From a virus (lineage: Duplodnaviria > Heunggongvirae > Uroviricota > Caudoviricetes): a stretch of 12,040 bases of DNA. Numbering within the stretch: position 1 is the first letter of the stretch; the number at the start of each line of letters is the position of its first letter. Location: IMG/VR virus record IMGVR_UViG_2751185968_000006; one strand, given 5' to 3'. The notes beneath the pieces are model-generated. The model worked only from the letters and a program-made list of their open reading frames with translations, was not told where the DNA came from and did not search any database. This document shows, in pieces, positions 1-12,040 of the stretch. Position numbers and translations under genes: made by a program.

Positions 1-188
1 CCATTCATGGCCATATCAATGATTTTCTGGTGCGTACCGGGCTGAGAGGCGGTGTAAGTGAACTGTAGTTGCCATGTTTTACGGCAATGAGAGCAGAGAT
101 AGCGCTGATGTCCGGCAGTGCTTTTGCCGTTACGCACCACGCCTTCAGTAGCGGAGCAGGAAGGACATCTGATGGAAATGGAAGCCAC
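1..188 (-). CDS. insA: IS1 InsA transposition protein, N-terminal part (gene runs off the window edge)
   Basis: Minus-strand translation from GTG at 188-186 gives [62 protein letters not shown], near-identical to canonical InsA as recalled. The supplied 5..217 ORF is a different frame. Confidence 0.8.
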
Positions 189-243
189 GCAAGCACCTTA
201 AAATCACCATCATACACTAAATCAGTAAGTTGGCAGCATTACC
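1..243 (-). mobile_element. IS1-family insertion sequence, partial; continues beyond the left window edge, terminal inverted repeat ends at 243
   Basis: Reverse complement of 232-243 is GGTAATGCTGCC, followed by AACTTACTGATTTAGTGTATGATGGTG, matching the IS1 left terminal repeat as recalled. The insA reading frame follows on the minus strand. Confidence 0.85.
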
Positions 244-2605
244 AATTAACGGAGGGTATCAGTACATTGAAATGAATGGTACCGCAGAATACTCAGTATT
301 AAATGACGGTTATCAAATTGTTCAAATGGGTGGCGCGGCAAACCAGACTACCCTCAATAATGGTGTGCTACAGGTTTATGGCGCAGCGAATGATCCCACG
401 ATTAAAGGCGGGCGCTTAATCGTTGAAAAAGATGGGATTACCGTCCTTGCCGCTATCGAAAAGGGAGGATTACTGGAGGTTAAAGAGGGGGGATTAGCGA
501 TTGCGGTAGATCAGAAAGCAGGCGGTGCTATTAAAGCAAGCACGCGGGTCATGGAGGCATTCGGAATAAACCGTCTCGGTCAGTTCGAAATCAAGAATGG
601 TATTGCTAACAATATGCTGTTGGAAAACGGCGGAAGTTTGCGAGTTGAAGAAAATGACTTCGCTTATAATACTACTGTAGATAGTGGCGGCTTACTGGAG
701 GTTATGGATGGCGGGACTGCAACTGGCGTTGATAAAAAAGCAGGCGGAAAATTAATTGTCTCAACGAATGCGCTGGAAGTGAGTGGTACAAACAGTAAAG
801 GCCAATTTAGTATAAAAGATGGTGTGTCAAAAAATTATGAACTGGATGATGGTTCCGGGCTCATTGTTATGGAGGACACGCAGGCCATTGATACTATCCT
901 TGATGAGCATGCCACTATGCAATCGCTGGGAAAGGATACTGGTACGAAAGTGCAGGCAAATGCGGTATATGATCTCGGTCGATCAGACCAGAATGGAAGT
1001 ATCACGTATTCCTCTAAAGCCATCTCTGAAAATATGGTTATCAACAATGGCCGCGCTAATGTCTGGGCTGGCACAATGGTTAACGTGTCAGTCAGAGGGA
1101 ATGATGGCATTCTTGAGGTCATGAAGCCGCAAATAAATTATGCACCCGCTATGTTGGTGGGTAAGGTAGTGGTTTCTGAGGGCGCTTCTTTTAGAACGCA
1201 TGGTGCCGTGGATACCAGCAAAGCGGACGTTTCGCTCGAAAATAGCGTATGGGCCATCATTGCCGATATCACTACGACGAACCAAAACACCCTCCTCAAC
1301 TTAGCCAACCTTGCGATGTCTGACGCAAATGTGATTATGATGGATGAGCCAGTGACTCGTTCATCAGTGACGGCAAGTGCGGAAAATTTCATTACGTTGA
1401 CCACCAATACCCTGTCGGGAAACGGCAATTTTTATATGCGTACCGATATGGCTAATCATCAGAGCGATCAGCTCAACGTCACCGGTCAGGCAACAGGTGA
1501 TTTCAAAATATTCGTGACGGACACCGGTGCCAGCCCGGCAGCAGGAGATAGCCTTACACTGGTAACAACGGGCGGCGGTGATGCTGCATTTACGTTGGGC
1601 AATGCCGGAGGCGTTGTTGATATCGGTACGTATGAATATACCTTGCTGGATAATGGCAACCATAGCTGGAGTTTGGCAGAGAATCGCGCGCAAATTACCC
1701 CTTCAACCACTGATGTGCTGAATATGGCGGCCGCACAACCGCTGGTATTTGATGCAGAACTGGACACCGTGCGTGAGCGTCTTGGTAGCGTAAAAAGCGT
1801 TAGTTACGATACGGCGATGTGGAGTTCGGCAATTAACACCCGCAACAACGTGACCACTGATGCGGGAGCTGGTTTTGAGCAAACATTGACGGGCCTGACG
1901 CTCGGTATCGATAGCCGTTTCTCCCGTGAAGAAAGCAGTACAATTCGCGGCTTGTTCTTTGGTTACTCTCATTCTGATATTGGTTTTGATCGCGGCGGAA
2001 AAGGTAATATCGATAGCTATACCCTGGGGGCTTATGCCGGTTGGGAGCATCAGAACGGTGCCTATGTTGATGGGGTGGTGAAAGTTGACCGTTTTGCCAA
2101 CACCATCCATGGCAAGATGAGTAATGGGGCAACAGCGTTTGGCGATTACAATAGTAACGGCGCGGGTGCTCATGTTGAGAGCGGGTTCCGTTGGGTTGAC
2201 GGATTGTGGAGTGTTAGACCCTATCTGGCCTTTACCGGCTTTACCACAGATGGTCAGGACTACACGTTATCAAACGGCATGCGCGCTGATGTGGGAAATA
2301 CCCGGATATTACGCGCTGAAGCGGGAACGGCGGTAAGCTATCACATGGACCTGCAAAATGGTACGACGCTGGAACCCTGGCTGAAAGCCGCCGTACGTCA
2401 GGAATACGCCGATTCTAACCATGTGAAAGTTAATGACGATGGCAAATTTAATAATGATGTGGCTGGAACCCCTGGCGTTTATCAGGCTGGGATAAGGTCA
2501 TCGTTTACCCCGACGTTAAGCGGTCATTTGTCAGTCAGCTATGGCAATGGCGCAGGGGTAGAATCGCCGTGGAATACTCAGGCGGGAGTGGTCTGGACGT
2601 TCTGA
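230..2605 (+). CDS. AIDA-I/Ag43-type autotransporter adhesin, 5'-truncated by IS1 (probable pseudogene: no signal peptide, no credible start)
   Basis: 791-aa ORF with repetitive GG-x-L-x-V passenger-type repeats and a C-terminal beta-barrel-like domain ending in aromatic residues (VVWTF). The frame runs into the IS1 terminal repeat; the only start is a TTG at 230 inside IS1, with an in-frame stop at 218-220. Confidence 0.75.
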   Translation: MAALPINGGYQYIEMNGTAEYSVLNDGYQIVQMGGAANQTTLNNGVLQVYGAANDPTIKGGRLIVEKDGITVLAAIEKGGLLEVKEGGLAIAVDQKAGGAIKASTRVMEAFGINRLGQFEIKNGIANNMLLENGGSLRVEENDFAYNTTVDSGGLLEVMDGGTATGVDKKAGGKLIVSTNALEVSGTNSKGQFSIKDGVSKNYELDDGSGLIVMEDTQAIDTILDEHATMQSLGKDTGTKVQANAVYDLGRSDQNGSITYSSKAISENMVINNGRANVWAGTMVNVSVRGNDGILEVMKPQINYAPAMLVGKVVVSEGASFRTHGAVDTSKADVSLENSVWAIIADITTTNQNTLLNLANLAMSDANVIMMDEPVTRSSVTASAENFITLTTNTLSGNGNFYMRTDMANHQSDQLNVTGQATGDFKIFVTDTGASPAAGDSLTLVTTGGGDAAFTLGNAGGVVDIGTYEYTLLDNGNHSWSLAENRAQITPSTTDVLNMAAAQPLVFDAELDTVRERLGSVKSVSYDTAMWSSAINTRNNVTTDAGAGFEQTLTGLTLGIDSRFSREESSTIRGLFFGYSHSDIGFDRGGKGNIDSYTLGAYAGWEHQNGAYVDGVVKVDRFANTIHGKMSNGATAFGDYNSNGAGAHVESGFRWVDGLWSVRPYLAFTGFTTDGQDYTLSNGMRADVGNTRILRAEAGTAVSYHMDLQNGTTLEPWLKAAVRQEYADSNHVKVNDDGKFNNDVAGTPGVYQAGIRSSFTPTLSGHLSVSYGNGAGVESPWNTQAGVVWTF

Positions 2606-2665
2606 TAACAGAAAATAAACAGGCTGTGATGTGTCACGGTCTGTTTATCAAATTAATTGCAGATA

Positions 2666-2698
2666 TAAAAAAACCAACCGTAAAGGTTGGTTTTTTCT
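2666..2698. terminator. Rho-independent terminator hairpin downstream of the autotransporter, potentially bidirectional
   Basis: Stem AACCAACC (2672-2679) / GGTTGGTT (2685-2692), loop GTAAA, flanked by an A-run upstream and T6 (2691-2696) downstream. Confidence 0.55.
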
Positions 2699-3109
2699 TG
2701 GGATTCACGAGAGTAGTTTAATTGAGCGTGTAACTTCATGATTTAAAATAATGTATATGATTCAACTTTTAAACCGTATAACCAAACGTATAACTAAAAT
2801 GATTTGCTGAAAAAATGCACAATTCAGGGTCGGATTTTCCCGGATGTTTAATTTATAAAAACGAAGCTGGTGGATGATCTGCGTGGTGATTTCCACCATT
2901 CAGAGCAGGGGCGGTCATCATGCCCATGCCATAACAAAAACCCCATATTCGTGGTTTTTCTGTGTTGTGGCTATTCTGCCGTTGCCGTGCTGGTGGATAT
3001 TTCCGTTATGGGGATCACCATATCGGCATCATGCCCACCAGCCAGCGCAATTTTGCGCTTTGCTTTAAGTTCAGCAAGTTACCGCGCCGGATTACGCCAA
3101 TGGCTGTTT

Positions 3110-3287
3110 CCGAAAGAATCAACGGGTTAGGCCTTAATGGGCTGCGTGGTAATTATCAGCATCCAGAATATGACGGGTTATGTTTCCGACCTCCTCAATT
3201 TGAGGTTCCCGAAAATATCAACGGGTTAGGCTGGTTTCCCCGATGTTCGCCGCTGGCGAATTTCGAAAATATCAACCAGTTACCGCC
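3110..3287 (+). repeat. Three direct copies of a ~22-bp motif (consensus near CGAAAATATCAACGGGTTAGGC) in a non-coding stretch at the element boundary
   Basis: Copies at 3110-3133 (CCGAAAGAATCAACGGGTTAGGCC), 3208-3232 (CCCGAAAATATCAACGGGTTAGGCT) and 3262-3287 (TTCGAAAATATCAACCAGTTACCGCC). A palindrome CCTCAATTTGAGG lies at 3193-3205. Confidence 0.5.
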
Positions 3288-3561
3288 GCAACCGCTCCGG
3301 CTTCTTCCAGTGGTATGTAATTTTCTCCGTTTCCCGATACAGTGCCACGCGGCGATTGTAGGCCAGCATTTCAAGAACGCGGATCCGTATGTTGCGCATA
3401 TCCACATCATTAAGCTGGATACCATCACGGCGCATCACCTCAGCAACAACACGCGCATAATTTTCGGCTGTCACGCTGTCCGGCTGCGTGGCCTGTTCGT
3501 CAGTCTGCTGGCTGATTCCACCAGCACGGCGGATTAATCCCAGTATTTCGGCTTCTGTCAT
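3280..3561 (-). CDS. Hypothetical protein (93 aa), last gene of the satellite-like element
   Basis: ORF with ATG at 3561 preceded by an AGGTG Shine-Dalgarno 4 nt upstream. No recognisable family. Confidence 0.5.
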   Translation of the reverse strand: MTEAEILGLIRRAGGISQQTDEQATQPDSVTAENYARVVAEVMRRDGIQLNDVDMRNIRIRVLEMLAYNRRVALYRETEKITYHWKKPERLRR

Positions 3562-3595
3562 TGTGCACCTATCGTTCTGATTGTCTGGTGTCGTC

Positions 3596-3780
3596 GGGTC
3601 CTTCCTGGAATTATGGACCCGTTACGGGGCGGCGACCTCGCGCGTTTTCACTATTTATGAAAATTTTTCGGGATCCATGTCCGGTTTCTCTACAAGTTAA
3701 CCATATGAAAAATATAAAAACATGCTTTCCATGAACCGGACATGCGCAAAAAACAGACACTAAAACCGGACATCGAACCA
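3596..3780 (+). other. Lambda-type cos site, copy A (plus orientation): cosQ-like flank, cosN, and cosB-like region with three ACCGGACAT repeats
   Basis: GTTACG at 3621-3626 then GGGCGGCGACCT at 3627-3638 (the 12-nt lambda cohesive-end sequence), then CGCGCGTTTTCACTATTTATGAAAATTTT resembling the lambda left end as recalled. Repeats: CATGTCCGG 3676-3684 (inverted), ACCGGACAT 3735-3743 and 3765-3773. Confidence 0.6.
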
Positions 3781-3841
3781 GTTAACCGAAAGTGTGCACA
3801 AATCACATGCATTGCTGCGAGTGATTAACAAGTTATCGGCT

Positions 3842-4276
3842 TTACTGTTCTGTATCGGCTGATTGCTCCATGCTGGCACGGCGAACGCTTACGGCATGAC
3901 GCCACCCAGCCAGAAAGCCAGCCATTTTATTTCGTGCCTTGCTCACATCTTCCGGTGAATAGCCGTAAATCTGCAAACCTTCATCAAATCGATGTTCTGT
4001 TTCTTCACTGGAGTACTCGTCACGCTCAGATGAAAGCAGCCTGGCAAACATAATTTTTTCCAGCGCACTGGTTTCTACGTGATATCTGATGGCCTCAAGA
4101 CGGCTTTTACCTGAAGACCAAAGCAATGTATGCCCGATGTGATAACCGCCAGACTTTCCGCGATCCGCATTAAGATACGGCATCCCCTGTTTGGTCCATG
4201 CGCGAATAGTGGTTCTGTTAACCTTGAAATGTTCAGCTATTTCCTGCTGACTTACAAAACAAGCTTTATCAATCAT
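3842..4276 (-). CDS. Terminase small subunit-like protein (lambda Nu1-type N-terminal HTH), 144 aa; candidate packaging-redirecting (Rpp-like) protein
   Basis: N-terminus QQEIAEHFKVNRTTIRAWTKQGMPY resembles lambda Nu1 KKQLADIFGASIRTIQNWQEQGMPV (from memory). It is shorter than Nu1, sits about 90 bp downstream of cos copy B on the same strand, and no large terminase gene is present. Confidence 0.7.
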   Translation of the reverse strand: MIDKACFVSQQEIAEHFKVNRTTIRAWTKQGMPYLNADRGKSGGYHIGHTLLWSSGKSRLEAIRYHVETSALEKIMFARLLSSERDEYSSEETEHRFDEGLQIYGYSPEDVSKARNKMAGFLAGWRHAVSVRRASMEQSADTEQ

Positions 4277-4343
4277 AATGTTACCTTAACTGCATGGTTA
4301 AATATTAATCAAGTGGTGGTGGTGTCACCTTCACGGAAAAACG

Positions 4344-4407
4344 TCATAAATAGCGAAAACCCGCGAGGTCGCCGCCCCGTAACGGGCCATAATTCCAGGA
4401 AGGACCC
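4344..4407 (-). other. Lambda-type cos site, copy B (minus orientation), immediately upstream of the TerS-like gene; inverted relative to copy A
   Basis: Minus-strand reading is GGGTCCTTCCTGGAATTATGGCCCGTTACG-GGGCGGCGACCT-CGCGGGTTTTCGCTATTTATGA; cosN lies at 4366-4377. About 64 bp are near-identical to copy A (3596-3660) in inverted orientation. Confidence 0.65.
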
Positions 4408-4409
4408 GC

Positions 4410-4431
4410 AAAAAAGCCGGATTTCTCCGGC
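4410..4431 (-). terminator. Rho-independent terminator-like hairpin after the 137-aa gene; copy 1 of a thrice-repeated hairpin
   Basis: Plus strand AAAAAA-GCCGGA-TTTC-TCCGGC (stem 4416-4421 / 4426-4431). On the minus strand the hairpin is followed by T6. Confidence 0.45.
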
Positions 4432-4437
4432 CTTGTC

Positions 4438-4851
4438 TCAGATGGTTTTCAGTATGCGATCGATGTCGCCGTCATCGCCTGGGTTTCTGCCATCGTATGC
4501 CATGCCAGCTGATACGGTTTGTGGGCTGTGCATGTCCATAAAGTTTTCAAAGGCTGCGGTAAGCTCTGGTGCAACCTTCGGGCGTTCCTGCTCTATGGTC
4601 ATGTTCAGGATGTTTTTAGCCGTATCAACATCGATACAAGGCACGTTTGCCATTGCACGCAACAGCGGCTGATAGTCTTTATGCTCATGAAGCGCCATAA
4701 TCGCATCAGCGCGCGGCTTGTCCTGCTCTTCCAGTTTGTTGAGTTGATATACGGCCTCGTAGGTTGATAAACCTCTGTCAGCCATTGCCCGCGCTTCGGC
4801 TTTAAATTTACTCGCCAGCGGTAGCGCCATGATGCTTTCATTCGTTGCCAT
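4438..4851 (-). CDS. Hypothetical protein (137 aa) between decoration-like gene and cos; possible head or packaging accessory protein
   Basis: ORF with ATG at 4851 and a GGGGGA Shine-Dalgarno sequence. Position matches a capsid/packaging module; no family recognised. Confidence 0.5.
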   Translation of the reverse strand: MATNESIMALPLASKFKAEARAMADRGLSTYEAVYQLNKLEEQDKPRADAIMALHEHKDYQPLLRAMANVPCIDVDTAKNILNMTIEQERPKVAPELTAAFENFMDMHSPQTVSAGMAYDGRNPGDDGDIDRILKTI

Positions 4852-4863
4852 CGTTCCCCCTGC

Positions 4864-5167
4864 TTATCGGGCCAGCGGCTGAACGGATACGCCAGAACCC
4901 GCAAAGGCGGCGCATTTTTTCGCATCGGTGTCGACGCTCTCAGGCCAGTTAACGGCGGCAATATTGAATATCCCCGTCTTGTAACACTGTGCTGATTTCT
5001 GCTTTGACGTGTCCACGAGGTACGAAGTCAGATAAACAGCCTTGCCAGATTCCTGACCATCCCACGGCTTAAACTCGCCATTGTCCACCAGCATCAGCGG
5101 CAAAATGTACCAGTGTCGTTGATACCTGCTGACTGCCTGCAAATAACTCAATATATGGAGTGTCCAT
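4864..5167 (-). CDS. Head decoration protein, lambda gpD-like; possibly frameshifted
   Basis: The C-terminal frame (supplied ORF 4864-5151) reads PLMLVD...WDGQ...YKTGIF...WPESVD...KKCAAFAGSG, paralleling lambda gpD PLMLD...WDG...YKSGTF...WPEA...KKRTAFAG (from memory). The only ATG with a good RBS (GGGGGA) is at 5167 in another frame, which stops at 5069. Confidence 0.55.
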
Positions 5168-5178
5168 ATAATCCCCCG

Positions 5179-6234
5179 TTAACCAATTTTGACGGTAACA
5201 AATTTGCGAATATCTGCCGGAACCGGCTGCGGTGCGCTGTGTGTCTGCACGTACTCAATCGCCGGATCGCCGTCCTCAATCCAGTTTTTCGGGTAGTACA
5301 TGTTTTGCGTTGCGCCCGTTCTTACCGCTTCCTGATCCATAATCGCACCATAGGCCACCAGCCCTTTATTGTTGGTGTTGCCCAGGACCAGCAAATCAGG
5401 CTCAAGGAAATATTTTTCGGTGCCGTCGCTGTCAGTGTATTTGCCGGAATAGACAATAAGAGCAATATCGCCCAGATAGCCTTTAAAGCTCACCACTTCG
5501 CCCAGGTTTTTACAGGCCATTTCTGCGGCGGATTCTGAACCACGGGAAAGATCGTACAGTTCACGGAATTTTTTAAAGCTGCGTAACGTGCGCCATACCT
5601 CAGCGCCCATAATCATGACGTTGGCGGGGCAACCTGCCTGATCTGCGTATAGTTCGATGTCATAGATTGGATCGTAAATATCTTTATCATGCTCGGACCA
5701 TTTTTTGCCGTCGGACTGCTCTATGATGTTTTTTTCCGGTATCTTCCAGTCGATTTCATAGCGTTCTATGCCTTCGCCCTCAATGATGTTTTTTCCGGTC
5801 GTTACCGCATTCACCGCCAGCCATTCCACGCGTGCCTTAATGGCGTTTATCTGGCGGCGCATGTTGCCAGTAATCAGGCGCATACGGCGATAGGTAGGGT
5901 CGTTAAGCTGTGCCGGATCTTCTCCAGCCATGCGCATGATGGTTTTCGTTGGATCGATTTCGTGCTTTGGCTTCATGTAGCCAGGTTTGATTGTGCTGGT
6001 TTCGTACCCTTTATCGCGCTGAACCTGGCTACCCACCATAGGCGAACAAAACGCCGACATGGTGACTTCTTCAATGTCCAGGGTATCCAGCATGATGTTT
6101 TGCGTGCTGAATGTCGCCACGTTCGGGAAAAACAGCGTGGTAAACAGAGGGCTGAATTTAAAATCCGCAATATCCCCGCGATTCAGGTACATAAAAAGCT
6201 GGTTAGTGTTAAGTGCCGTTGCTTTGCCTGCCAT
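5179..6234 (-). CDS. Major capsid protein, lambda gpE family (351 aa)
   Basis: Collinear similarity to lambda gpE as recalled: FKFSPLFTTLFF vs FKFDPLFLRLFF, PGYMKPKHEIDP vs PGYVKPKHEVNP, DPTYRRMRLITGNMR vs DPAYRRRRIIMQNMR, YKGYLGDIALIVYSG vs YKGMYGDVAIVVYSG, YPKNWIEDGDPA vs YPKNWVTTGDPA. Confidence 0.9.
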   Translation of the reverse strand: MAGKATALNTNQLFMYLNRGDIADFKFSPLFTTLFFPNVATFSTQNIMLDTLDIEEVTMSAFCSPMVGSQVQRDKGYETSTIKPGYMKPKHEIDPTKTIMRMAGEDPAQLNDPTYRRMRLITGNMRRQINAIKARVEWLAVNAVTTGKNIIEGEGIERYEIDWKIPEKNIIEQSDGKKWSEHDKDIYDPIYDIELYADQAGCPANVMIMGAEVWRTLRSFKKFRELYDLSRGSESAAEMACKNLGEVVSFKGYLGDIALIVYSGKYTDSDGTEKYFLEPDLLVLGNTNNKGLVAYGAIMDQEAVRTGATQNMYYPKNWIEDGDPAIEYVQTHSAPQPVPADIRKFVTVKIG

Positions 6235-6440
6235 TATTCACCCCCATAATTTTTATGCATCCCAAGCGCCGCAAGTAAATAAGAGCGTACAAGTGAACCT
6301 ATCGACGGCTCCGGCGTCATCAGCGGATCCAGTCCAGCCGCCACGCCAGCCTCATAGTTTTTTTTGTGGCGCTGCTTGAGCACCTCCACGATTTCGGGGC
6401 TTATGTACACCGAAACACCGCCTTTTTTCTCTTCAGCCAT
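6234..6440 (-). CDS. Hypothetical small protein (about 68 aa), translationally coupled to the major capsid gene
   Basis: Likely start at ATG 6440 (MAEEKKGG...) with AAGAGGAA upstream; the supplied ORF extends to 6473 without an RBS. Its stop overlaps the capsid start as TAATG at 6232-6236. Confidence 0.45.
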   Translation of the reverse strand: MAEEKKGGVSVYISPEIVEVLKQRHKKNYEAGVAAGLDPLMTPEPSIGSLVRSYLLAALGMHKNYGGE

Positions 6441-6493
6441 AGTAAGAAATTCCTCTTCGACTAAAAAAATCATAACTGGATGTTTATCCAGTC

Positions 6494-6524
6494 CTGATTA
6501 TAATCAGAATTGCATTTTATGCAA
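6494..6524 (-). promoter_or_regulatory. Putative sigma70-type promoter for the capsid module, with both hexamers inside palindromes
   Basis: Minus strand: -35 TTGCAT (plus 6519-6524), 16-bp spacer, -10 TATAAT (plus 6497-6502). The -10 lies in the palindrome CTGATTATAATCAG (6494-6507) and the -35 in TTGCATTTTATGCAA (6510-6524). Confidence 0.4.
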
Positions 6525-6604
6525 TAATATTGAGTTATGTTGCAAATTATGAAATGATTATCCCGATCACGAACGCCAGTGCATCCAAAAACCTCATATG
6601 CAAA

Positions 6605-6642
6605 AGCCCGATAAGAACCCTCTGACCTTATCGGGCTTTTTT
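6605..6642 (+). terminator. Terminator-like hairpin with T6 tail on the plus strand
   Basis: Stem AGCCCGATAAG (6605-6615) / CTTATCGGGCT (6627-6637), followed by TTTTTT (6637-6642). No obvious plus-strand gene lies upstream. Confidence 0.4.
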
Positions 6643-6648
6643 GGGCGC

Positions 6649-6670
6649 AAAAAAGCCGGATTGCTCCGGC
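6649..6670 (-). terminator. Rho-independent terminator-like hairpin after the 74-aa gene; copy 2 of the repeated hairpin
   Basis: Plus strand AAAAAA-GCCGGA-TTGC-TCCGGC (stem 6655-6660 / 6665-6670); T6 follows on the minus strand. Confidence 0.45.
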
Positions 6671-6690
6671 TATGTGTGCTGTGTGCTGGA

Positions 6691-6915
6691 TCAGTCTCTG
6701 ATCTCTTTCAGAAATTCTATCAATGCATCTATCTGTTCAGGATTTACCGCCAGCATTTCACCGGATAGAGCACATCTCACAAAACCATGCTGATCCTTTT
6801 CAATCAGTGCGCCCGTCTCCAGGAATGCGCGGTAATCATTGATGCTCATCGTCTCCATGTTGTCAGCATGGTATTTATCACGCTGTTTTAATATCTCATC
6901 AAATTTCATCGGCAT
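6691..6915 (-). CDS. Hypothetical protein (74 aa), stand-alone cassette
   Basis: ATG at 6915 with an AGAGGAAA Shine-Dalgarno sequence. Bracketed by terminator hairpins at 7012-7033 (upstream) and 6649-6670 (downstream). Confidence 0.5.
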   Translation of the reverse strand: MPMKFDEILKQRDKYHADNMETMSINDYRAFLETGALIEKDQHGFVRCALSGEMLAVNPEQIDALIEFLKEIRD

Positions 6916-7011
6916 TGTTTTTTTCCTCTGTTGTGTCTGTTTGTTTCAGATAGTAACTATGCCTGACCGTGACGAAAACCCGGTAATGCGCCATACCGTT
7001 TCAACTGGTGC

Positions 7012-7033
7012 AAAAAAGCCGGATTTCTCCGGC
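7012..7033 (-). terminator. Rho-independent terminator-like hairpin after the PerC-like gene; copy 3 of the repeated hairpin
   Basis: Plus strand AAAAAA-GCCGGA-TTTC-TCCGGC (stem 7018-7023 / 7028-7033); T6 follows on the minus strand. Confidence 0.45.
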
Positions 7034-7040
7034 TGTTTGA

Positions 7041-7313
7041 TTAGCTGTCCTGGTAATTGCGCCATATTTCATCACCAGCACCATCTATACCCATTTCGGC
7101 ATAAGTGCGATCGACTGCCTTTTTCAGGTCTCCGAAATTATCCGGCGGCTCCGGTGCCCTCTGTGCCTTCCTTGAACATTCCAGCCGTCGCATCGTGATG
7201 TGATGCCGTTCCTTGTCTGTCTCCACCAGCTGCATGACTTCACCCCATCGCGCCGCCGCCCTCCGGTAAAAGCCTTTCGCCTCCAGTTCCTCCGCTATGC
7301 GGTCATGTACCAT
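7041..7313 (-). CDS. PerC-family-like transcriptional regulator (about 90 aa)
   Basis: Likely start at ATG 7313 with a strong GAGGGGGTG RBS. The protein MVHDRIAEELEAKGFYRRAAARWGEVMQLVETDKERHHITMRRLEC fits the PerC/Pch pattern (LE..G.WRRAA.RW...TD.ER) as recalled. Confidence 0.45.
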   Translation of the reverse strand: MVHDRIAEELEAKGFYRRAAARWGEVMQLVETDKERHHITMRRLECSRKAQRAPEPPDNFGDLKKAVDRTYAEMGIDGAGDEIWRNYQDS

Positions 7314-7323
7314 CGTCACCCCC

Positions 7324-7734
7324 TCAGAACGAAATATCATCACCGTAAGGGTCATCGCCTCCCGCTGGTGGCTGATTACCCTGTGTGCCTGTGGTTTTGC
7401 GTCTGTTCCCGCCTGGACGTGCCGCGCGGGCACTGATTACGCTGTCTGCGATAACCTGCCAGCCCTGCCGCGTTTCTCCGTTCTGTCCGGTCCACTGGCT
7501 TACCTGCATCGTGCCGGATACGCTGGCAACATCGCCTTTTTGATGTTTAGCCAGGAAGTCGGCCTGTTTGCCAAATGCGATGACCGATAACCATAACGTC
7601 GCCTGTCCGTCCTGTGCCTGGCTGCATGGCAAAGATACCGCCATACGCGCCAGCGTCATCGGTGTGCCCTTGCTGGTCTGTTTTACCTGCGGGTCGTCCA
7701 CCAGCCGCCCGTAAGCGGCTATCTGTGCCGTCAT
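7324..7734 (-). CDS. Single-stranded DNA-binding protein (SSB)-like, 136 aa
   Basis: N-terminus IAAYGRLVDDPQVK resembles the SSB OB-fold start (VILVGNLGQDPEVR), and the C-terminal acidic tip PYGDDISF resembles DDDIPF. The start overlaps the upstream stop as ATGA. Confidence 0.65.
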   Translation of the reverse strand: MTAQIAAYGRLVDDPQVKQTSKGTPMTLARMAVSLPCSQAQDGQATLWLSVIAFGKQADFLAKHQKGDVASVSGTMQVSQWTGQNGETRQGWQVIADSVISARAARPGGNRRKTTGTQGNQPPAGGDDPYGDDISF

Positions 7735-7982
7735 AATTCCACCTCTCCGGTTTTAACGTTGATGGTTGTTACCTGTTCCGCTTCGGCAATCTCCCGTTCT
7801 GTCAGCGTGGCAAAGTTTGCCGCCGCCGTGGTCATGAATGCGCTTATCAGGTCGGGATGTTCCTTCGCGTATCCTTCCCGCGTGTGGCGGTCTATCGTTC
7901 TGATTGCCACCTTTAAGGTGTGCTCAGTCATGTCTAACGCTTTATATTTTGGCTCTGTTCTGTCTCTGCGTTTTTGGGTCAT
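7731..7982 (-). CDS. Hypothetical protein (83 aa from ATG 7982; the supplied ORF extends to a GTG at 8012)
   Basis: ORF translationally coupled to the SSB-like gene. The upstream extension overlaps the iteron array, so the ATG at 7982 is the more likely start. Confidence 0.45.
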   Translation of the reverse strand: MTQKRRDRTEPKYKALDMTEHTLKVAIRTIDRHTREGYAKEHPDLISAFMTTAAANFATLTEREIAEAEQVTTINVKTGEVEL

Positions 7983-7993
7983 TTCTCGCAACC

Positions 7994-8181
7994 TCTCACT
8001 TTTTCGCCTCACTTTTTCAAGCGTCTCACTTCGTCGCAGTTGGGATTTTCGGTTTTTCTATGTGTGTGTTTTATAAGTATTTTTTTACCCCTCACTTTTG
8101 AGGATGTATACAGGTCGAAAAGTGAGGGAGAGCGGGCTAATTTTGGCCCTCTTTCTATCCCCCTCGCTTTTGCTCCTCACT
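7994..8181. repeat. Iteron array and AT-rich region: putative satellite origin of replication, immediately downstream of the replication gene
   Basis: Seven copies of CCTCACTTTT-like motifs: CTCACT at 7995-8000, 8008-8013, 8025-8030, 8091-8096 and 8176-8181, an inverted copy at 8118-8127, and a variant CTCGCT at 8163-8168. An AT-rich stretch lies at 8041-8087; copies 4 and 5 form 12-bp inverted arms 16 bp apart. Confidence 0.5.
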
Positions 8182-8182
8182 T

Positions 8183-8530
8183 TTATAGCGGCGCTACATC
8201 ATCCCCATCGATACTAATAACCCCATCTTTTTCCAGCTTGTACAGCCAGCGCCGGAAGTTTTTCATTTCATACCCCAGCTTTTTCATGTCATCACGTAAC
8301 AGCGGGATCGTGCACTTGTCGCCGTTCTGTGTGCGTGAACGGATGCACCCCCATAGCGCGGTATGGTTTTCCGTCTTGTTCCCTGCCTCCTCGATGCGCT
8401 CCAGTTCAACAGGAGGGCGCGGATCATCCACCACCACCAGCGACGTGATTAATTCACCGTCAGCGTCGGTAAAAAGCTCCACCACGCGTAAGTCATATGC
8501 GGCTTCTTTGAGTTCCTCCGCGTCCTTCAT
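8183..8530 (-). CDS. Replication protein, C-terminal fragment (second piece of a frameshifted primase/helicase-type gene)
   Basis: This frame stays open upstream of the annotated ATG to about 8638 and there encodes DESARGSSAFRASLDAEY, the expected continuation after the HHSGKD motif of RecA-like replication ATPases. Confidence 0.6.
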   Translation of the reverse strand: MKDAEELKEAAYDLRVVELFTDADGELITSLVVVDDPRPPVELERIEEAGNKTENHTALWGCIRSRTQNGDKCTIPLLRDDMKKLGYEMKNFRRWLYKLEKDGVISIDGDDVAPL

Positions 8531-9582
8531 TTTGGTGCATGAGATAACCAGCGCTTTGCTTCCTGCGTCCTCCCTGCGTATCCGGTATTCAGCATCCAGC
8601 GAAGCACGAAATGCACTGGAACCGCGCGCGCTTTCGTCTCATCCTTGCCGGAATGGTGAACCACCAGCACCGTGGCCCCTGTGCGTCGTTTCAGTTCGTC
8701 ACAACCACGGATAAACGCCCCCATATCACGGGAATCATTTTCATCATTCCCACCAAAGCAACGCGCCAGCGTATCCAGAATAATCATGCGTACAGGTTTA
8801 CCCGTTTCCCGCTCCACCTGACGGGCAGCGATAACCATTTCATCAACATCAAGCGGGGCAGCCGGAAAGATGGGGCGGTTTACCAGATACAGATTTTTCA
8901 CCTGCTCATCGTGCACAACCTCCCAGGCTTTTACACGACGCGGAACGCCGATACCGCCTTCACCAACCACATAGAGAACCGCACCATGTGCAACCCTGCG
9001 GCCTCCCCACTGGCGACCAGTGGCAACATGGCACGCCCACGATCCGGCAAGGAATGATTTATAGGACCCGCTAGCCCCGTATATGCTGCATAGCGATACC
9101 GCCGGAATAATCCCCTTAACCACGTAATCCAGTTGCGTGTCGTATCCGGTAGATCCAACGCTCATCGGTAGCGTGGTTTTTCGCTGGTGGTTTTTTTCTT
9201 CCACCGGCTCTTTCCCGCGCACCCGTTCCAGGTATTCGCGCCAGTTCTCCCGCATATGGCTGTGCATCCCTTCGGGGTAATAATTCGCATCAGTTACACC
9301 CGCCGCCGCCAGCTTGTGCGCAATGGCATTAATATTTGATGGCCTGATGTGGCCTGCCTTGTACAGCCGGACACAATAGCGCCCCTCGTCGATGATTCTC
9401 AGGTCTGCCAGTTCATCCAGTTGATCATCAGCCAGCACAACGGGAGGCACATTATCGCCAGCCAGTCGCCCGTCCTGTTCCTGCCACTGTTTTGCATGTG
9501 CCCAGGCATCACTACCCGCAAAAATAATGACTTCGGTCATCTTGTCGTAAGGCTGTTTTTTTAAGTTCGGTGCGCTTTTCAT
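8527..9582 (-). CDS. Primase/helicase-type replication protein (RepA-like P-loop ATPase), N-terminal fragment ending prematurely after a frameshift
   Basis: Walker A GASGSYKS, Walker B MIILDTLARCF, then VLVVHHSGKDE typical of RepA-like helicases. The frame then reads TKARAVPVHF... to a stop at 8527, just downstream of a (CG)4 tract at 8623-8631. Confidence 0.75.
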   Translation of the reverse strand: MKSAPNLKKQPYDKMTEVIIFAGSDAWAHAKQWQEQDGRLAGDNVPPVVLADDQLDELADLRIIDEGRYCVRLYKAGHIRPSNINAIAHKLAAAGVTDANYYPEGMHSHMRENWREYLERVRGKEPVEEKNHQRKTTLPMSVGSTGYDTQLDYVVKGIIPAVSLCSIYGASGSYKSFLAGSWACHVATGRQWGGRRVAHGAVLYVVGEGGIGVPRRVKAWEVVHDEQVKNLYLVNRPIFPAAPLDVDEMVIAARQVERETGKPVRMIILDTLARCFGGNDENDSRDMGAFIRGCDELKRRTGATVLVVHHSGKDETKARAVPVHFVLRWMLNTGYAGRTQEAKRWLSHAPK

Positions 9583-9878
9583 TTCTTGCCCCTGAATCCG
9601 TTAATCATGGTTTTCAGCTTCTGGATGTTTGCCCGTGCCCTGGCGTTGCTGGTGGGCACGTTATGCGGCGCGGTCTGTACCAGAGAAAAATCACGCCGGA
9701 ACTGATAAACAGGCATCACGCAATCATATTCGTAACCTTCACGGCGGTAGGTTACACGCCGTTCTTCCACGCCCTTAATCATTACCGTGCCGCCGTACTG
9801 GTCGCGGTAAATATCACCGCGCGTAAATTTAGGGTGAGTGTTGCCACTGGCAGTTAAGCCAGAATATTTAAGTTTCAT
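9579..9878 (-). CDS. Hypothetical protein (99 aa), coupled to the replication gene
   Basis: ORF in the tiled minus-strand operon; its stop overlaps the replication gene start (ATGA). Overlapping plus-strand ORFs have junk-like composition. Confidence 0.45.
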   Translation of the reverse strand: MKLKYSGLTASGNTHPKFTRGDIYRDQYGGTVMIKGVEERRVTYRREGYEYDCVMPVYQFRRDFSLVQTAPHNVPTSNARARANIQKLKTMINGFRGKK

Positions 9879-9883
9879 TATTT

Positions 9884-10117
9884 TTATTCTCCGGTGTGCT
9901 GTTCTTTATATCTGTCGTGCAATAGATCTATTTCTTGCAGTTCCATTATTACAGGCTCAAGAAGCGTTATTAATGCCGTGGCAATTCTTGATTTTTGTTT
10001 GTCGCGTTCATTGTCGCCAAGTGTTTCAAGCCATATGCGCAATATTTCCAGCATGTTTTCACTGTGAGAAAGTGCAAGAAATGCGCGGTCTATTGTTTCG
10101 TGGTAAATATCACGCAT
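9884..10117 (-). CDS. Hypothetical protein (77 aa)
   Basis: ORF in the tiled minus-strand operon with protein-like, charged composition; no family recognised. Confidence 0.45.
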   Translation of the reverse strand: MRDIYHETIDRAFLALSHSENMLEILRIWLETLGDNERDKQKSRIATALITLLEPVIMELQEIDLLHDRYKEQHTGE

Positions 10118-10343
10118 GGCTTACATCCTCAGGAAATTTTCTTCTGTAACGCGCCTCTGCCACATATTCCGCATAATCGGCGGCGATATTCAGTACATCA
10201 AGCCCCGTTGATTTATATTCTCTCGTGGAAAGTAAGAAAAAAGCCGCTCTAATAAGTTCTGGCATTGACGAAAGCGCATCAGCCGCATCATCAGGAACGC
10301 CGGGAAATTCCTGTTTCAGGGAATTAAAACGATCATCACGCAT
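10110..10343 (-). CDS. Hypothetical protein (77 aa from ATG 10343; the supplied ORF extends to 10391)
   Basis: ATG at 10343 is preceded by a G7 Shine-Dalgarno run and overlaps the upstream stop codon (ATGCGTGA). Confidence 0.45.
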   Translation of the reverse strand: MRDDRFNSLKQEFPGVPDDAADALSSMPELIRAAFFLLSTREYKSTGLDVLNIAADYAEYVAEARYRRKFPEDVSHA

Positions 10344-10557
10344 AACCCCCCCCATTTTCACAATCAGCAACAAGAATATTTTTAGCGTCATTCAGCGACC
10401 GCGTTGCGATGTATCGGATACATTCCAGGGCGAACTGTGTCCGGTCTTTCTGTTCTTCTCCCTGCGCAAGCTCTGCAGTGCATTCAATATCAATAAGCGC
10501 GTGCATCAGCGTAGTGAGTGCGGCGGCTGCTGCGTTCGGTGTGGTTTTATTGTGCAT
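10336..10557 (-). CDS. Hypothetical protein (73 aa from ATG 10557; the supplied ORF extends to 10599)
   Basis: ATG at 10557 is preceded by AGGGGGAAA. No family recognised. Confidence 0.45.
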   Translation of the reverse strand: MHNKTTPNAAAAALTTLMHALIDIECTAELAQGEEQKDRTQFALECIRYIATRSLNDAKNILVADCENGGGYA

Positions 10558-10747
10558 AGGTTTCCCCCTGACGAATACGGGCGGCGAATACAGCAACACA
10601 ACCGGACGGGCAACGGCTACGCGCTTCGCGTTCCGTCCAGGCGGTTACGTGGATGATTTGAGATTCTCCGGCACTCAGGGCCAGAAAACGCCACACAAAG
10701 GCCGTTTGTGTGTGTACAAGGTGTGGTATATGATTTACGGCAACCAT
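10547..10747 (-). CDS. Hypothetical small protein (66 aa), likely first gene of the leftward operon
   Basis: ATG at 10747 is preceded by TAGGAG with a 5-nt spacer. A structured leader hairpin (10779-10809) lies upstream. Confidence 0.35.
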   Translation of the reverse strand: MVAVNHIPHLVHTQTAFVWRFLALSAGESQIIHVTAWTEREARSRCPSGCVAVFAARIRQGETYAQ

Positions 10748-10836
10748 AACGGCTCCTAGTTTACGTTGTTGGTTAGAAGCCCTGCGAGTGGTAATGACAC
10801 TTGCGGGGCTTTGCTTTTTTAAGTGCTCTTGTGTTA

Positions 10837-10883
10837 AGGTGGCCACCTAACAATGGAAAGGCTAATTCAATAGGTGACCACTT
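10837..10883. promoter_or_regulatory. Divergent control region with two related operator-like sites and a consensus -35 hexamer
   Basis: Perfect 12-bp palindrome AGGTGGCCACCT (10837-10848) and a related half-palindromic site AGGTGACCACTT (10872-10883), about 35 bp apart. TTGACA reads on the minus strand at 10888-10883. Confidence 0.35.
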
Positions 10884-10941
10884 GTCAATAATCAAACGCG
10901 ATAAAAGCCCTAAAGGGGACGGGCAATCCCCACAATTCAGA

Positions 10942-11073
10942 ATGCGAATTTCTCCAGAGCTAAAAGAGCAATTCGACAAAGAAGCACAGAGCGACGGCAT
11001 AAGCCTAGCCAACTGGCTTAAAGAGTTGGGGCGCACTGAACTAAAGCGGCGCGGCATAGAACCCAAAGGATAA
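10942..11073 (+). CDS. Small ribbon-helix-helix (Arc/CopG-like) DNA-binding protein, 43 aa; candidate repressor
   Basis: MRISPELKEQFDKEAQSDGISLANWLKELGRTELKRRG fits the RHH pattern of a short N-terminal beta-strand followed by two helices. It is divergent from the main operon and next to the operator-like palindromes; its RBS is weak. Confidence 0.45.
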   Translation: MRISPELKEQFDKEAQSDGISLANWLKELGRTELKRRGIEPKG

Positions 11074-11130
11074 AAACTATCAGCGCCGTGGTGTGAGGTA
11101 TTACGGCGCATTGCTATGCAGGACAACACA

Positions 11131-11304
11131 ATGACCGATAAAGAATTGACCAAAACATTATCACCGGCACGGAAAAGACGGCGCAGAAAGATAGAGCATG
11201 AATCAGAAAGATTCGCACCATGTGCTTTTGCCCTTGAGCAATTCCTTAAAGAGTATAGGGAAAAGCGCTCATTGCAGGTATGGCAACGAACTGAACCAGA
11301 CTGA
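11131..11304 (+). CDS. Hypothetical small basic protein (57 aa), second gene of the rightward pair
   Basis: ATG at 11131 is preceded by AGGA with a 7-nt spacer. It has an arginine/lysine-rich N-terminus (ARKRRRRK) and is followed by a plus-strand terminator. Confidence 0.35.
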   Translation: MTDKELTKTLSPARKRRRRKIEHESERFAPCAFALEQFLKEYREKRSLQVWQRTEPD

Positions 11305-11398
11305 TTGCATTGCCCACCAGCCTGATAGCGGCTATCATCCCCGTGCTTATGTTTGGGATCATATACACATAAGGCGCAGCGGGTTAATTGTTCAGAAA

Positions 11399-11426
11399 GG
11401 CGGCTCCATATCGGGGCCGCTTTTTT
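11399..11426 (+). terminator. Rho-independent terminator of the rightward RHH operon, convergent with alpA
   Basis: Stem GCGGCTCC (11400-11407) / GGGGCCGC (11413-11420) with one G-U pair, loop ATATC, followed by T6 (11421-11426). Confidence 0.5.
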
Positions 11427-11452
11427 CGTGTTTGTCATATCTGTGATACCCG

Positions 11453-11659
11453 TTAAGCAGCCGTTCCGCGTGCTTCCTGTTCGCGTTCTTTCTGCCAGGC
11501 CAACACATCATCCTCATACCATCCGCGACGGCGTAAACCAACGCGAAAACCCTGCGGAAATTCTCCGGCGTTGATCATGCTTTGCAGCGTGCTGTCTGCC
11601 TTGATGTGGATAATTTTTTTTACTTCCTGGCGAAAGATAATTTTTCTGATTGCTTCCAT
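11453..11659 (-). CDS. alpA: AlpA-family (phage excisionase/regulator-like) DNA-binding protein, 68 aa
   Basis: KADSTLQSMINAGEFPQGFRVGLRRRGWYEDDVLAWQ matches the AlpA/Xis-type pattern (...FP.P.K.G.R...W...EV..W) as recalled. Confidence 0.7.
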   Translation of the reverse strand: MEAIRKIIFRQEVKKIIHIKADSTLQSMINAGEFPQGFRVGLRRRGWYEDDVLAWQKEREQEARGTAA

Positions 11660-11764
11660 CGTGATTTACCTTGTGAATCCGGTGTATTCCGGTGACAAAT
11701 ACGGTAAATCATCGGATATGGGTAAAAACAGTTCCCACCGTTTTTAAACGGTATACACCGTTTT

Positions 11765-12040
11765 GGTAATGACTCCAACTTACTGATAGTGTTTTATGTT
11801 CAGATAATGCCCGATGACCTTGTCATGCAGCTCCACCGATTTTGAGAACGACAGTGACTTCCGTCCCAGCCTTGCCAGATGTTGTCTCAGATTCAGATTA
11901 TGTCGCTCAATGCGCTGAGTGTAACGCTTGCTGATAACGTGCAGCTTTCCCTTCAGGCGTGATTCATACAGCGGCCAGCCATCCGTCATCCATACCACGA
12001 CCTCAAAGGCCGACAGCAGGCTCAGAAGACGCTCCAGTGT
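11765..12040 (-). mobile_element. IS1-family insertion sequence, partial; right terminal repeat at 11765, continues beyond the right window edge
   Basis: GGTAATGACTCCAACTTACTGATAGTGTTTTATGTTCAGATAATGCCCGATGAC from 11765 matches the IS1 right terminal repeat as recalled. The insB frame follows on the minus strand. Confidence 0.9.
11780..12040 (-). CDS. insB: IS1 InsB transposase, C-terminal part (gene runs off the window edge)
   Basis: Minus-strand translation [86 protein letters not shown] matches the InsB C-terminus as recalled; it is in frame to the window edge. Confidence 0.85.

Follow-up and report, generated by a model that had tools for sequence, protein, structure and literature searches.

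Two same-orientation IS1 copies around a yejO remnant and a PICI-like satellite at proL: probably two independent insertion events in a Shigella-type chromosome

Described IS1-bounded structures and phage satellites

The classical IS1 composite transposon is Tn9, in which cat lies between direct repeats of IS1. The promotion of adjacent deletions is likewise part of classical IS1 genetics. As for phage satellites, the element described below is PICI-like and putatively related to the PICIs, or capsid-forming PICIs, of Enterobacteria. A further point of comparison is the expansion and decay associated with IS1 in Shigella, where the chromosome of S. boydii Sb227 carries the element 160 times (Hawkey et al. 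2020, PMC7373316, S1 Table).

The DNA analysed here, hereafter the window, is a stretch of 12,040 nucleotides (IMG/VR record IMGVR_UViG_2751185968_000006) whose two ends lie inside IS1 copies. As in Tn9, these copies are in direct orientation, have IRR and IRL available as outer ends, and border an interval that recombination between them would delete. In contrast to Tn9, the inner DNA is native to its site, the two copies differ in their time of arrival and the segment was not found at a second location. The window has in common with Shigella IS1 expansion and decay that an identical IS1 variant is found both in a pseudogenised surface-protein gene and in an element of prophage type; of the two copies, one is strain-specific and the other clade-wide, and one is accompanied by an adjacent deletion. 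Nothing of substance sets it apart from that process, the right-hand copy being apparently private to one sublineage. With a probability of roughly 0.78, we consider that the bracketing involves no mobile unit and goes back to two IS1 events, independent and of different ages, in an IS1-expanded chromosome of Shigella type that resembles S. boydii Sb227.

Geometry and identity of the IS1 pair

The window opens in the inner part of a left copy, IS1-L (1..243, minus strand), comprising IRL and the 5' part of insA and corresponding to IS1 positions 526-768 in window orientation. It closes in the inner part of a right copy, IS1-R (11765..12040, minus strand), comprising IRR and the 3' end of insB and corresponding to IS1 positions 1-276. 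Only these partial copies are visible, the outer flanks of both lying beyond the window. Both stretches match a single 768-bp IS1 of related genomes at 100% and on the same strand, which bears out the initial annotation of two partial minus-strand copies forming direct repeats, here around 11,521 bp (244-11764). The window part of IS1-L is 100% identical to the full 768-bp IS1 occupying the same site in four related loci (L002, L004, L030 and L031), and positions 1-276 of IS1-R are 100% identical to the same positions of the IS1-L copy.

As read from the sequence, the IRL of IS1-L closes with ...GGCAGCATTACC at 243 and insA starts with a GTG codon at 188; the IRR of IS1-R opens with GGTAATGACTCCAACTTACTGAT... 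at 11765 and the insB stop codon occupies 11780-11782, the insA start and the insB end being both readable in the window. E. coli matches to the 11765-12040 stretch are annotated as IS1 family transposase. In L031 and L004, the full element at the IS1-L site has the size and ends expected of IS1, a 768-bp element bounded by imperfect inverted repeats of about 23 bp; its length is 768 bp and its termini are GGTAATGACTCCAACTTACTGAT and GGTAATGCTGCCAACTTACTGAT. The products of the IS1-L copy in relatives match Zn_ribbon_InsA, HTH_Tnp_IS1 and DDE_Tnp_IS1 (PF03811, PF12759 and PF03400), in agreement with the IS1 reading frames. The sister assembly L031 contains the whole of IS1-L; of IS1-R, 276 bp is the most that is visible anywhere.

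Native chromosome and a decaying satellite between the two copies

The bracketed DNA is not one island: a stretch of 2.47 kb of native chromosome, namely a 5'-truncated yejO with its terminator, precedes about 9 kb that belong to a PICI-like satellite in decay. The yejO autotransporter remnant (244..2605, plus strand), recognised by Pfam and by a homologue annotated as yejO in RefSeq, is native chromosomal DNA outside the satellite. Its promoter and first 230 bp, corresponding to the signal-peptide region, are gone; the AIDA, Pertactin and beta-barrel domains are kept according to Pfam. The native intergenic DNA between the yejO stop codon and proL (2606..2702) aligns with the K-12 yejO-proL spacer and contains a hairpin terminator, AAAAAACCAACCGTAAAGGTTGGTTTTTT. 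It is followed by the distal att junction of the satellite, CACGAGAG (2703..2716), identified by comparison with the K-12 empty site and with proL in L004. This sequence is the repeated 3' end of tRNA-Pro(GGG), and the length of the T-run adjoining it varies among strains.

The body of the satellite (2717..11764), with all its genes on the minus strand, was delineated using Pfam, PHROGs, a homologous RefSeq element and intact versions in relatives. In order of position, it includes genes for a phrog_1561 protein (3280-3561), a small-terminase-like protein (3842-4276) and a protein resembling a protease C-terminus or scaffold (4438-4851), a head-decoration pseudogene with a 32-bp deletion at 5087/5088 (4864-5167), and a major capsid gene of the gpE type (5179-6234). 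Next come the genes for PerC (7041-7313) and SSB (7324-7734), a RepA helicase pseudogene with a frameshift at about 8630 (8183-9582), genes for a DUF4222 protein (9579-9878) and for Icd-like products, a 221-aa ORF (10773-11438), and a gene for an AlpA/excisionase-like HTH protein assigned by excisionase/regulator PHROGs (11453-11659). The 351-aa RepA fragment had no exact protein match on record.

Several features place this element among PICI-like phage satellites. In relatives, a gene for a 413-aa tyrosine integrase adjoins tRNA-Pro(GGG) and the 3' end of proL is repeated at the distal junction, giving the expected combination of integrase and att sites, of which the window holds the distal att only (about 2703-2716). 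The element measures 10.9 kb in L004, and its size agrees with the roughly 10-15 kb of such satellites, as does the presence of RepA (AAA_25), SSB, DUF4222 and an AlpA-type HTH protein as replication and regulatory functions with the assignment. Head genes are limited to the capsid, decoration, scaffold-like and small-terminase-like genes, which fall short of a complete set of virion genes. The likeness to PICIs thus extends to a size of about 10.9 kb, integration at a tRNA gene, a tyrosine integrase, an AlpA-like regulator, a RepA helicase with SSB, and few phage head or packaging genes. Compared with PICIs, it carries a lambda-type gpE capsid, a gpD-type decoration protein and a small-terminase-like gene; portal, protease and large terminase, found in the neighbouring variant L014, are absent from it. 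The copy in the window is defective, with RepA and decoration pseudogenes and with int cut off by IS1-R.

An old IS1 insertion in yejO

Comparison with loci in which yejO is intact (L005 and L001) revealed that IS1-L replaced 372 bp, made up of 142 bp upstream of yejO and the first 230 bp of the gene. The flanks of the element, CTTCTCATC on the outer side and AATTAACGG on the inner side, are 372 bp apart in intact-yejO genomes, and no target duplication was found at IS1-L, where the outer-left flank is not repeated on the inner side. The lack of a duplication follows from the replacement of these 372 bp. The truncation of the autotransporter, ascribed to the left IS1 in the initial annotation, is accordingly explained by the insertion together with the loss of 372 bp. 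This configuration resembles IS1-promoted adjacent deletion in that one end of the element forms a new junction, the adjoining 372 bp have disappeared and a target duplication is lacking. Recombination between two older IS1 copies separated by 372 bp would leave the same picture, and IS1-L could have arisen in that way rather than by insertion with adjacent deletion.

IS1-L occurs at an identical junction in at least 11 related loci (L002-L004, L006-L010 and L030-L032) and is bridged at that junction by complete genomes. It is an old insertion, in a state common to many Shigella genomes.

A recent IS1 copy in the satellite

The site of IS1-R is uninterrupted in relatives, where it reads ...ACGGTATACACCGTTTT|TATATTGATG in a spacer of 65% A+T, and the insertion lies 105 bp upstream of the start of the HTH gene. 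The satellite sequence gives way to the element precisely at the terminal base of IS1, GGTAATGA. An ORF of 52 aa with a TTG start (11620-11778) runs across this junction and is absent from the L031 gene calls.

Besides the window, the IS1-R junction was found in one other record only, a draft contig (L031/L033; GCA_000815685.1, AMJZ01000059.1) that was reached via the 95-aa decoration fragment and a 115-aa RepA fragment. This contig differs from the window by 0 substitutions over 11.8 kb; it bridges IS1-L and stops 39 bp into IS1-R. IS1-R is lacking in L030 and in L032 (21 similar places), the nearest relatives among those sharing the 32-bp deletion, as it is in all other relatives, and the 76-aa ORF, the integrase and tRNA-Pro are kept in all of them. 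Consistent with this distribution, no full-length match to the junction was obtained in 5,426 complete E. coli genomes, the exact junction pattern gave 0 matches in each of the genome, viral and metagenome contig collections, and none of the relatives found by exact matches to the capsid, HTH and 221-aa proteins carries IS1-R. The right copy therefore appears to be recent and private to one sublineage.

Since both window ends lie inside IS1 and many draft contigs with these genes are 10-20 kb long, the bracketing might be suspected to be an assembly artefact, in which contig ends were collapsed into a generic IS1 and IS1-R does not truly lie beside the satellite. The independent assembly AMJZ01000059.1, however, has the identical satellite/IS1-R junction, this junction coincides with the exact terminal base of IS1, and complete genomes bridge IS1-L at the same junction, so that an artefact is extremely unlikely.

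What lies beyond IS1-R is approached through the relatives. In the sequence of events that we favour, the satellite, some 10.9 kb in size, integrated into proL at its 3' end, beside the 3' end of yejO, and IS1 entered the 5' region of yejO with loss of 372 bp, leaving no target duplication, as the comparisons given above indicate. The last event would have come much later and in a single sublineage, when another copy of this IS1 variant entered the A+T-rich spacer at a point 105 bp upstream of the AlpA-like gene. Its inner junction is directly visible, and it would have parted the satellite body from the 76-aa ORF, the integrase and attL. Judging from the general behaviour of IS1, IS1-R is most likely a simple insertion that duplicated CACCGTTTT, of which the predicted inner copy occupies 11756..11764 as deduced from the uninterrupted site in relatives, and the integrase gene probably still lies just outside the window. 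The integrase described as missing in the initial annotation need not be so, since the window ends 276 bp into IS1-R: in relatives, its gene occupies the stretch about 390-1630 bp past the insertion point, which a simple insertion would place outside the window. The same model predicts that the outer end of IS1-R reads ...GGCAGCATTACC|CACCGTTTT|TATATTGATGATTTG..., with the 76-aa ORF and the integrase beyond it.

IS1-R might instead mark the breakpoint of a rearrangement or deletion, arising after the arrival of IS1 at this position or by recombination with a distant IS1, in which case the DNA beyond it (the 76-aa ORF, the integrase, attL and perhaps proL and yejM) would have been deleted or inverted away and the integrase would be truly missing. 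IS1-L behaved in exactly this manner, with 372 bp lost and no target duplication, and the draft assembly of the same lineage, which bridges IS1-L, ends 39 bp into IS1-R, as could happen if the structure beyond were more complex. IS-mediated deletions are moreover common in Shigella (Hawkey et al. 2020, PMC7373316). Yet, all other relatives, including those only 0-7 differences away, keep int-proL-yejM, and strain-specific IS1 sites are mostly simple insertions. The extent of any deletion would also be limited by yejM (lapC), which is regarded as essential in E. coli. Taken together, we regard a breakpoint at IS1-R as unlikely, and simple insertion as the preferred account of this copy.

Does the segment move as a unit?

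The native gene order at this locus in E. coli is narP-yejO-[satellite]-int-proL-yejM, the empty site in K-12 defining the att junction, and the same order was observed in K-12, in satellite-bearing E. coli and in all Shigella relatives. In genomes with neither IS1 (L005, L001 and K-12), the inner DNA is contiguous with the outer-left flank, and in those devoid of IS1-R it is contiguous with int-proL. Since the inner DNA natively continues the outer flanks where IS1 is absent, the window does not have the foreign passenger that characterises a composite transposon. The contexts retrieved via four window proteins were all located at narP-proL, with the exception of L011, where a related satellite, free of IS1 and with an integrase of its own, occupies a different site; among these contexts, the segment was not found at a second locus or replicon. 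No plasmid holding at least 80% of the segment was found.

These observations bear on the proposal that the direct IS1 pair, with the 11.5 kb it encloses, constitutes a composite transposon of the Tn9 type, or else an IS1 translocatable unit, and that it moves or once moved as a block. The geometry is that of Tn9, with direct IS1 repeats and IRR and IRL facing outward, and the visible parts of both copies are identical to one variant. The passenger is nevertheless native to the site and lies 372 bp from the outer-left flank in intact genomes, many genomes carry IS1-L without IS1-R, the segment is always at narP-proL with no plasmid copy, and the outer-left flank has no duplicate on the inner side. 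A composite transposon is already contradicted as an account of the arrival of the segment, and it is very improbable as a description of the pair. It is unsupported because the IS1 copies are separate insertions of different ages around DNA at its native location. The composite-transposon-like movement proposed in the initial annotation thus did not hold, given native inner DNA, IS1 copies of different ages and no second locus or plasmid copy. Independent, fixed insertions, each with its own target duplication, and an immobile segment had been named there as the refuting outcome; independence and non-mobility stood, but a target duplication of its own is lacking at IS1-L.

The possibility that IS1-L and IS1-R represent one copy on a 12.3-kb circle was rejected as the main reading, as the sister contig L031/L033 runs from IS1-L into narP and ccm; such a circle would be a minor excision product at most.

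With the 160 copies of Sb227, the mean spacing of IS1 is about 28 kb. For any one copy, the computed probability of meeting another in the same orientation within 11.5 kb to one side is about 0.17, and a genome is expected to contain about 27 same-orientation pairs at such a distance. The bracketing is no more than chance gives in such a genome, and the shared orientation of the two copies is coincidental, a 1-in-2 outcome.

Significance for the satellite and the chromosome

Were the pair to act as a Tn9-like composite element of about 13 kb, or as an IS1 translocatable unit, it would move a capsid-encoding satellite, along with the passenger and barrel domains of yejO, independently of the satellite integrase, and a defective satellite would gain a second, transposon-based route of spread; the odds of this are very small. 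Two independent insertions of different ages instead amount to ordinary Shigella genome decay, with no new mechanism or element. They nonetheless provide a clean, datable case, in which an old IS1 killed yejO and a recent one cut the satellite from its integrase. IS1-R further cripples a satellite already hit by the RepA frameshift and the 32-bp deletion in the decoration gene. Dozens of IS1 pairs of like orientation and a few kb apart are to be expected in genomes of this kind; they should not be taken for composite transposons unless a flanking duplication or a second location is found.

The suggestion of IS1-mediated deletion remains sound in principle, two 768-bp direct repeats being a suitable substrate. 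RecA-dependent recombination between them could delete about 12.3 kb, and the predicted product is a single IS1 joining ...CAGCTTCTCATC to TATATTGATG... Deletion between direct IS1 repeats is a generic consequence of such pairs, and is how Shigella genomes shrink.

Two directly oriented IS1 copies at the window ends

The left IS1 piece (IS1-L, window 1-243, minus strand) holds the left inverted repeat, beyond which insA begins (GTG at 188), and terminates in ...GTTGGCAGCATTACC. The right piece (IS1-R, 11765-12040, minus strand) begins with GGTAATGACTCCAACTTACTGATAG and carries the 3' part of insB, with its stop codon at 11780-11782, together with the right inverted repeat. Only the inner portions of both copies are visible, the window boundaries falling within them. 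Sequence comparison revealed a full-length 768-bp IS1 at the left site in relatives, and the two pieces correspond to positions 526-768 and 1-276 of that one copy, with 100% identity and on the same strand. Based on their length, terminal repeats, and reading frames, both are bona fide IS1, and they enclose 11,521 bp (244-11764) in direct orientation, as proposed in the initial annotation.

The left copy is old and accompanied by a deletion

IS1 occurs at the identical junction, with the same outer flank, in 11 related loci that are 99.9% identical to the window across 1-11764, including CP000036, which we take to be S. boydii Sb227. Comparison of the outer and inner 9 bp of IS1-L (CTTCTCATC and AATTAACGG, respectively) found them different, with no target duplication, and in genomes with an intact yejO (L005 and L001) these flanks lie 372 bp apart. 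According to the L001 annotation, the missing piece comprises 142 bp upstream of yejO and the first 230 bp of the gene. Since the junction is shared by 11 loci, IS1-L is an old, widely inherited copy with an associated 372-bp loss. Its origin was either an adjacent deletion promoted by IS1 or a recombination event that joined two earlier copies. The truncated autotransporter, previously attributed to IS1, is indeed explained by IS1-L and a loss that covers the 5' end of yejO.

The enclosed DNA is native yejO followed by a phage satellite

The interval 244-11764 is not a single island. It starts with yejO (244-2605), an autotransporter gene with AIDA, Pertactin, and beta-barrel domains that belongs to the E. 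coli core and, in the K-12 region, points its 3' end toward the tRNA-Pro gene proL. It continues with the native yejO-proL spacer and its terminator (2606 to about 2702) and the distal att junction (about 2703-2716) of an integrated element; this junction carries CACGAGAG, the repeated proL 3' end. From this junction onward, the satellite occupies roughly 9 kb (about 2717 to 11764), with all genes on the minus strand. These include a small-terminase-like gene, a protease-C-terminus/scaffold-like gene, a gpD-type head-decoration gene (4864-5167), a gpE-type major capsid gene, PerC, SSB, a RepA-family helicase gene (8183-9582, minus strand), DUF4222, Icd-like genes, and an AlpA/excisionase-like HTH gene. 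Intact elements in E. coli and Shigella display the order narP, yejO, satellite, 76-aa ORF, integrase, tRNA-Pro, yejM, and span about 10.9 kb from att repeat to att repeat. In its testable features, the interior element matches a PICI-like satellite.

Other lineages carry further lesions in yejO. In L007 (CP049285), an IS3-family element lies in the yejO remnant at a site equivalent to window 392-396, where a 5-bp alignment overlap suggests a 5-bp duplication, and the K-12 yejO (L034 4920-6114) is split by IS5. To judge from these sequences, yejO is a repeated IS target and a repeatedly lost gene, its remnant being struck anew in other lineages. The distal att junction (window 2698-2716) also varies in length among strains (L001, L002, L004, L030, L032, and K-12), with the variants GGGATTTTTGGCCACGAGAG, GGGATTTTTGCACGAGAG, GGGATTTTTCACGAGAG, GGGATTCACGAGAG (that of the window), and GGGCACGAGAG. 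The att crossover region appears to undergo stepwise erosion, which could impair satellite excision.

The satellite was in decay before the right copy arrived

The satellite in the window is already in decay. A 32-bp deletion (5087/5088) breaks its head-decoration gene; it lies between two direct repeats of 13 bp (CCAGCATCAGCGG) and leaves a 95-aa ORF. Since the protein collection lists this ORF in 74 blocks, the lesion is the mark of an entire sublineage, one that predates IS1-R. RepA is cut into 351-aa and 115-aa pieces by the loss of one base beside a CG run (about 8620-8635). The sequence there is CCGCGCGCGCCTTTC in intact relatives, CCGCGCGCGCTTTC (-1) in the window, and CCGCGCGCCTTTC (-2) in the sister assembly L031, owing either to two slips in succession or to a difference in sequencing. 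Apart from this site, the window and L031 differ only in a T6/T7 run at 6636.

Relatives carrying IS1-L read through window 11764/11765 unbroken (...ACGGTATACACCGTTTT|TATATTGATG...) into a terminator, the 76-aa ORF, and then the integrase. The IS1-R junction occurs in one other record only, the draft contig AMJZ01000059.1 of GCA_000815685.1 (L031/L033), which ends 39 bp inside IS1-R and differs from the window by no substitution and just two single-base indels over 11.8 kb. The junction had no full-length match among 5,426 complete E. coli genomes, and no exact match in genome, viral, or metagenome contig collections. The next-closest genomes (L030, and L032 with 21 similar places) have the 32-bp deletion without IS1-R; they depart from the window at 5-7 aligned positions, through 3-5 small indels and without any substitution. 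IS1-R, whose junction recurs in a single other record and is absent from these closest relatives, is therefore the same IS1 variant acquired recently and private to its lineage. That the bracketing is an assembly artefact is highly improbable.

IS1-R sits 105 bp upstream of the AlpA-like gene, in a spacer with 65% A+T, and most likely represents a simple insertion duplicating CACCGTTTT. The integrase, previously regarded as missing, would then start about 390 bp past the far IS1 end, outside the window. The main rival reading, in which IS1-R marks a deletion or rearrangement breakpoint and the integrase is truly gone, is unlikely.

An unremarkable pair that does not move as a unit

The S. boydii Sb227 chromosome contains 160 IS1 among 348 IS (Hawkey et al. 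2020, S1 Table; PMC7373316), a mean spacing of about 28 kb. At this density, any one IS1 has a probability of about 0.17 of being joined, within 11.5 kb on one side, by another in the same orientation. The expectation is then about 27 such pairs per genome, and the pairing is statistically unremarkable.

The evidence argues against the bracketed segment being a moving unit. The geometry, IS1 in direct repeat, resembles Tn9, but the passenger here is native on both sides, the copies differ in age, and only one location was retrieved. Contexts recovered via four different window proteins all mapped to the narP-proL locus except L011, a related satellite located elsewhere that has a different integrase and lacks IS1, and no plasmid record contained at least 80% of the segment. 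A composite transposon is therefore very improbable, its testable features failing on a passenger that is not foreign and a second location that was not found. The initial reading of the pair stands for orientation, yejO truncation, and generic deletion potential; for composite-transposon-like movement it does not.

The proposed history begins with two demonstrated steps: satellite integration at proL, and entry of IS1 into yejO with loss of 372 bp, inactivating the autotransporter in an ancestor of many Shigella. A later IS1 in one sublineage would then have cut the satellite body off from int and attL, a step whose inner junction is seen and whose outer junction we infer. Were RecA to recombine the two direct repeats, about 12.3 kb would be deleted and a single IS1 would be left between narP and int. 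Such loss between IS copies is ordinary IS-driven genome reduction in Shigella (Hawkey et al. 2020, PMC7373316). The consequences of the pair are generic, and the structure is of an ordinary, already-known kind in an IS1-rich genome.

Variation among satellites at proL

The slot 3' of the scaffold-like gene (window 3842-4276) holds one of two unrelated alleles, as seen against L001 (9714-10256) and L013 (17873-18415). The window and its Shigella relatives encode a 144-aa protein with small-terminase similarity confined to the N-terminus, and many E. coli a 180-aa Nu1-type small terminase; the 180-aa ORF on the plus strand (window 4130-4672) is probably spurious. Within the satellite, a terminator-like hairpin repeat of 33 nt (..GCCGGAGAAATCCGGCTTTTTTGC..), traced from the L004 repeat family D1, occurs in three copies (4405-4437, 6645-6677, and 7008-7040). 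L003-type relatives lack the 338 bp that separate two of these copies (window 6672-7009, with a 74-aa ORF at 6691-6915), which suggests deletion or exchange between hairpin repeats.

Loci L012-L021, at the same proL site, share one and the same HTH protein (68 aa) and an integrase of equal length (413 aa), and carry swappable modules. Their replicase slot holds a RepA helicase, a D5_N/DUF5906 primase, or DUF927, and their head/packaging genes are a lambda-type capsid and decoration set accompanied by a small terminase (Nu1-like or other), a complete HK97 set of capsid, protease, portal, HNH, and terminase (L014), or Terminase_2 with a capsid-like gene (L016). By gene content, the satellites at proL form a strongly mosaic family sharing one attachment site.
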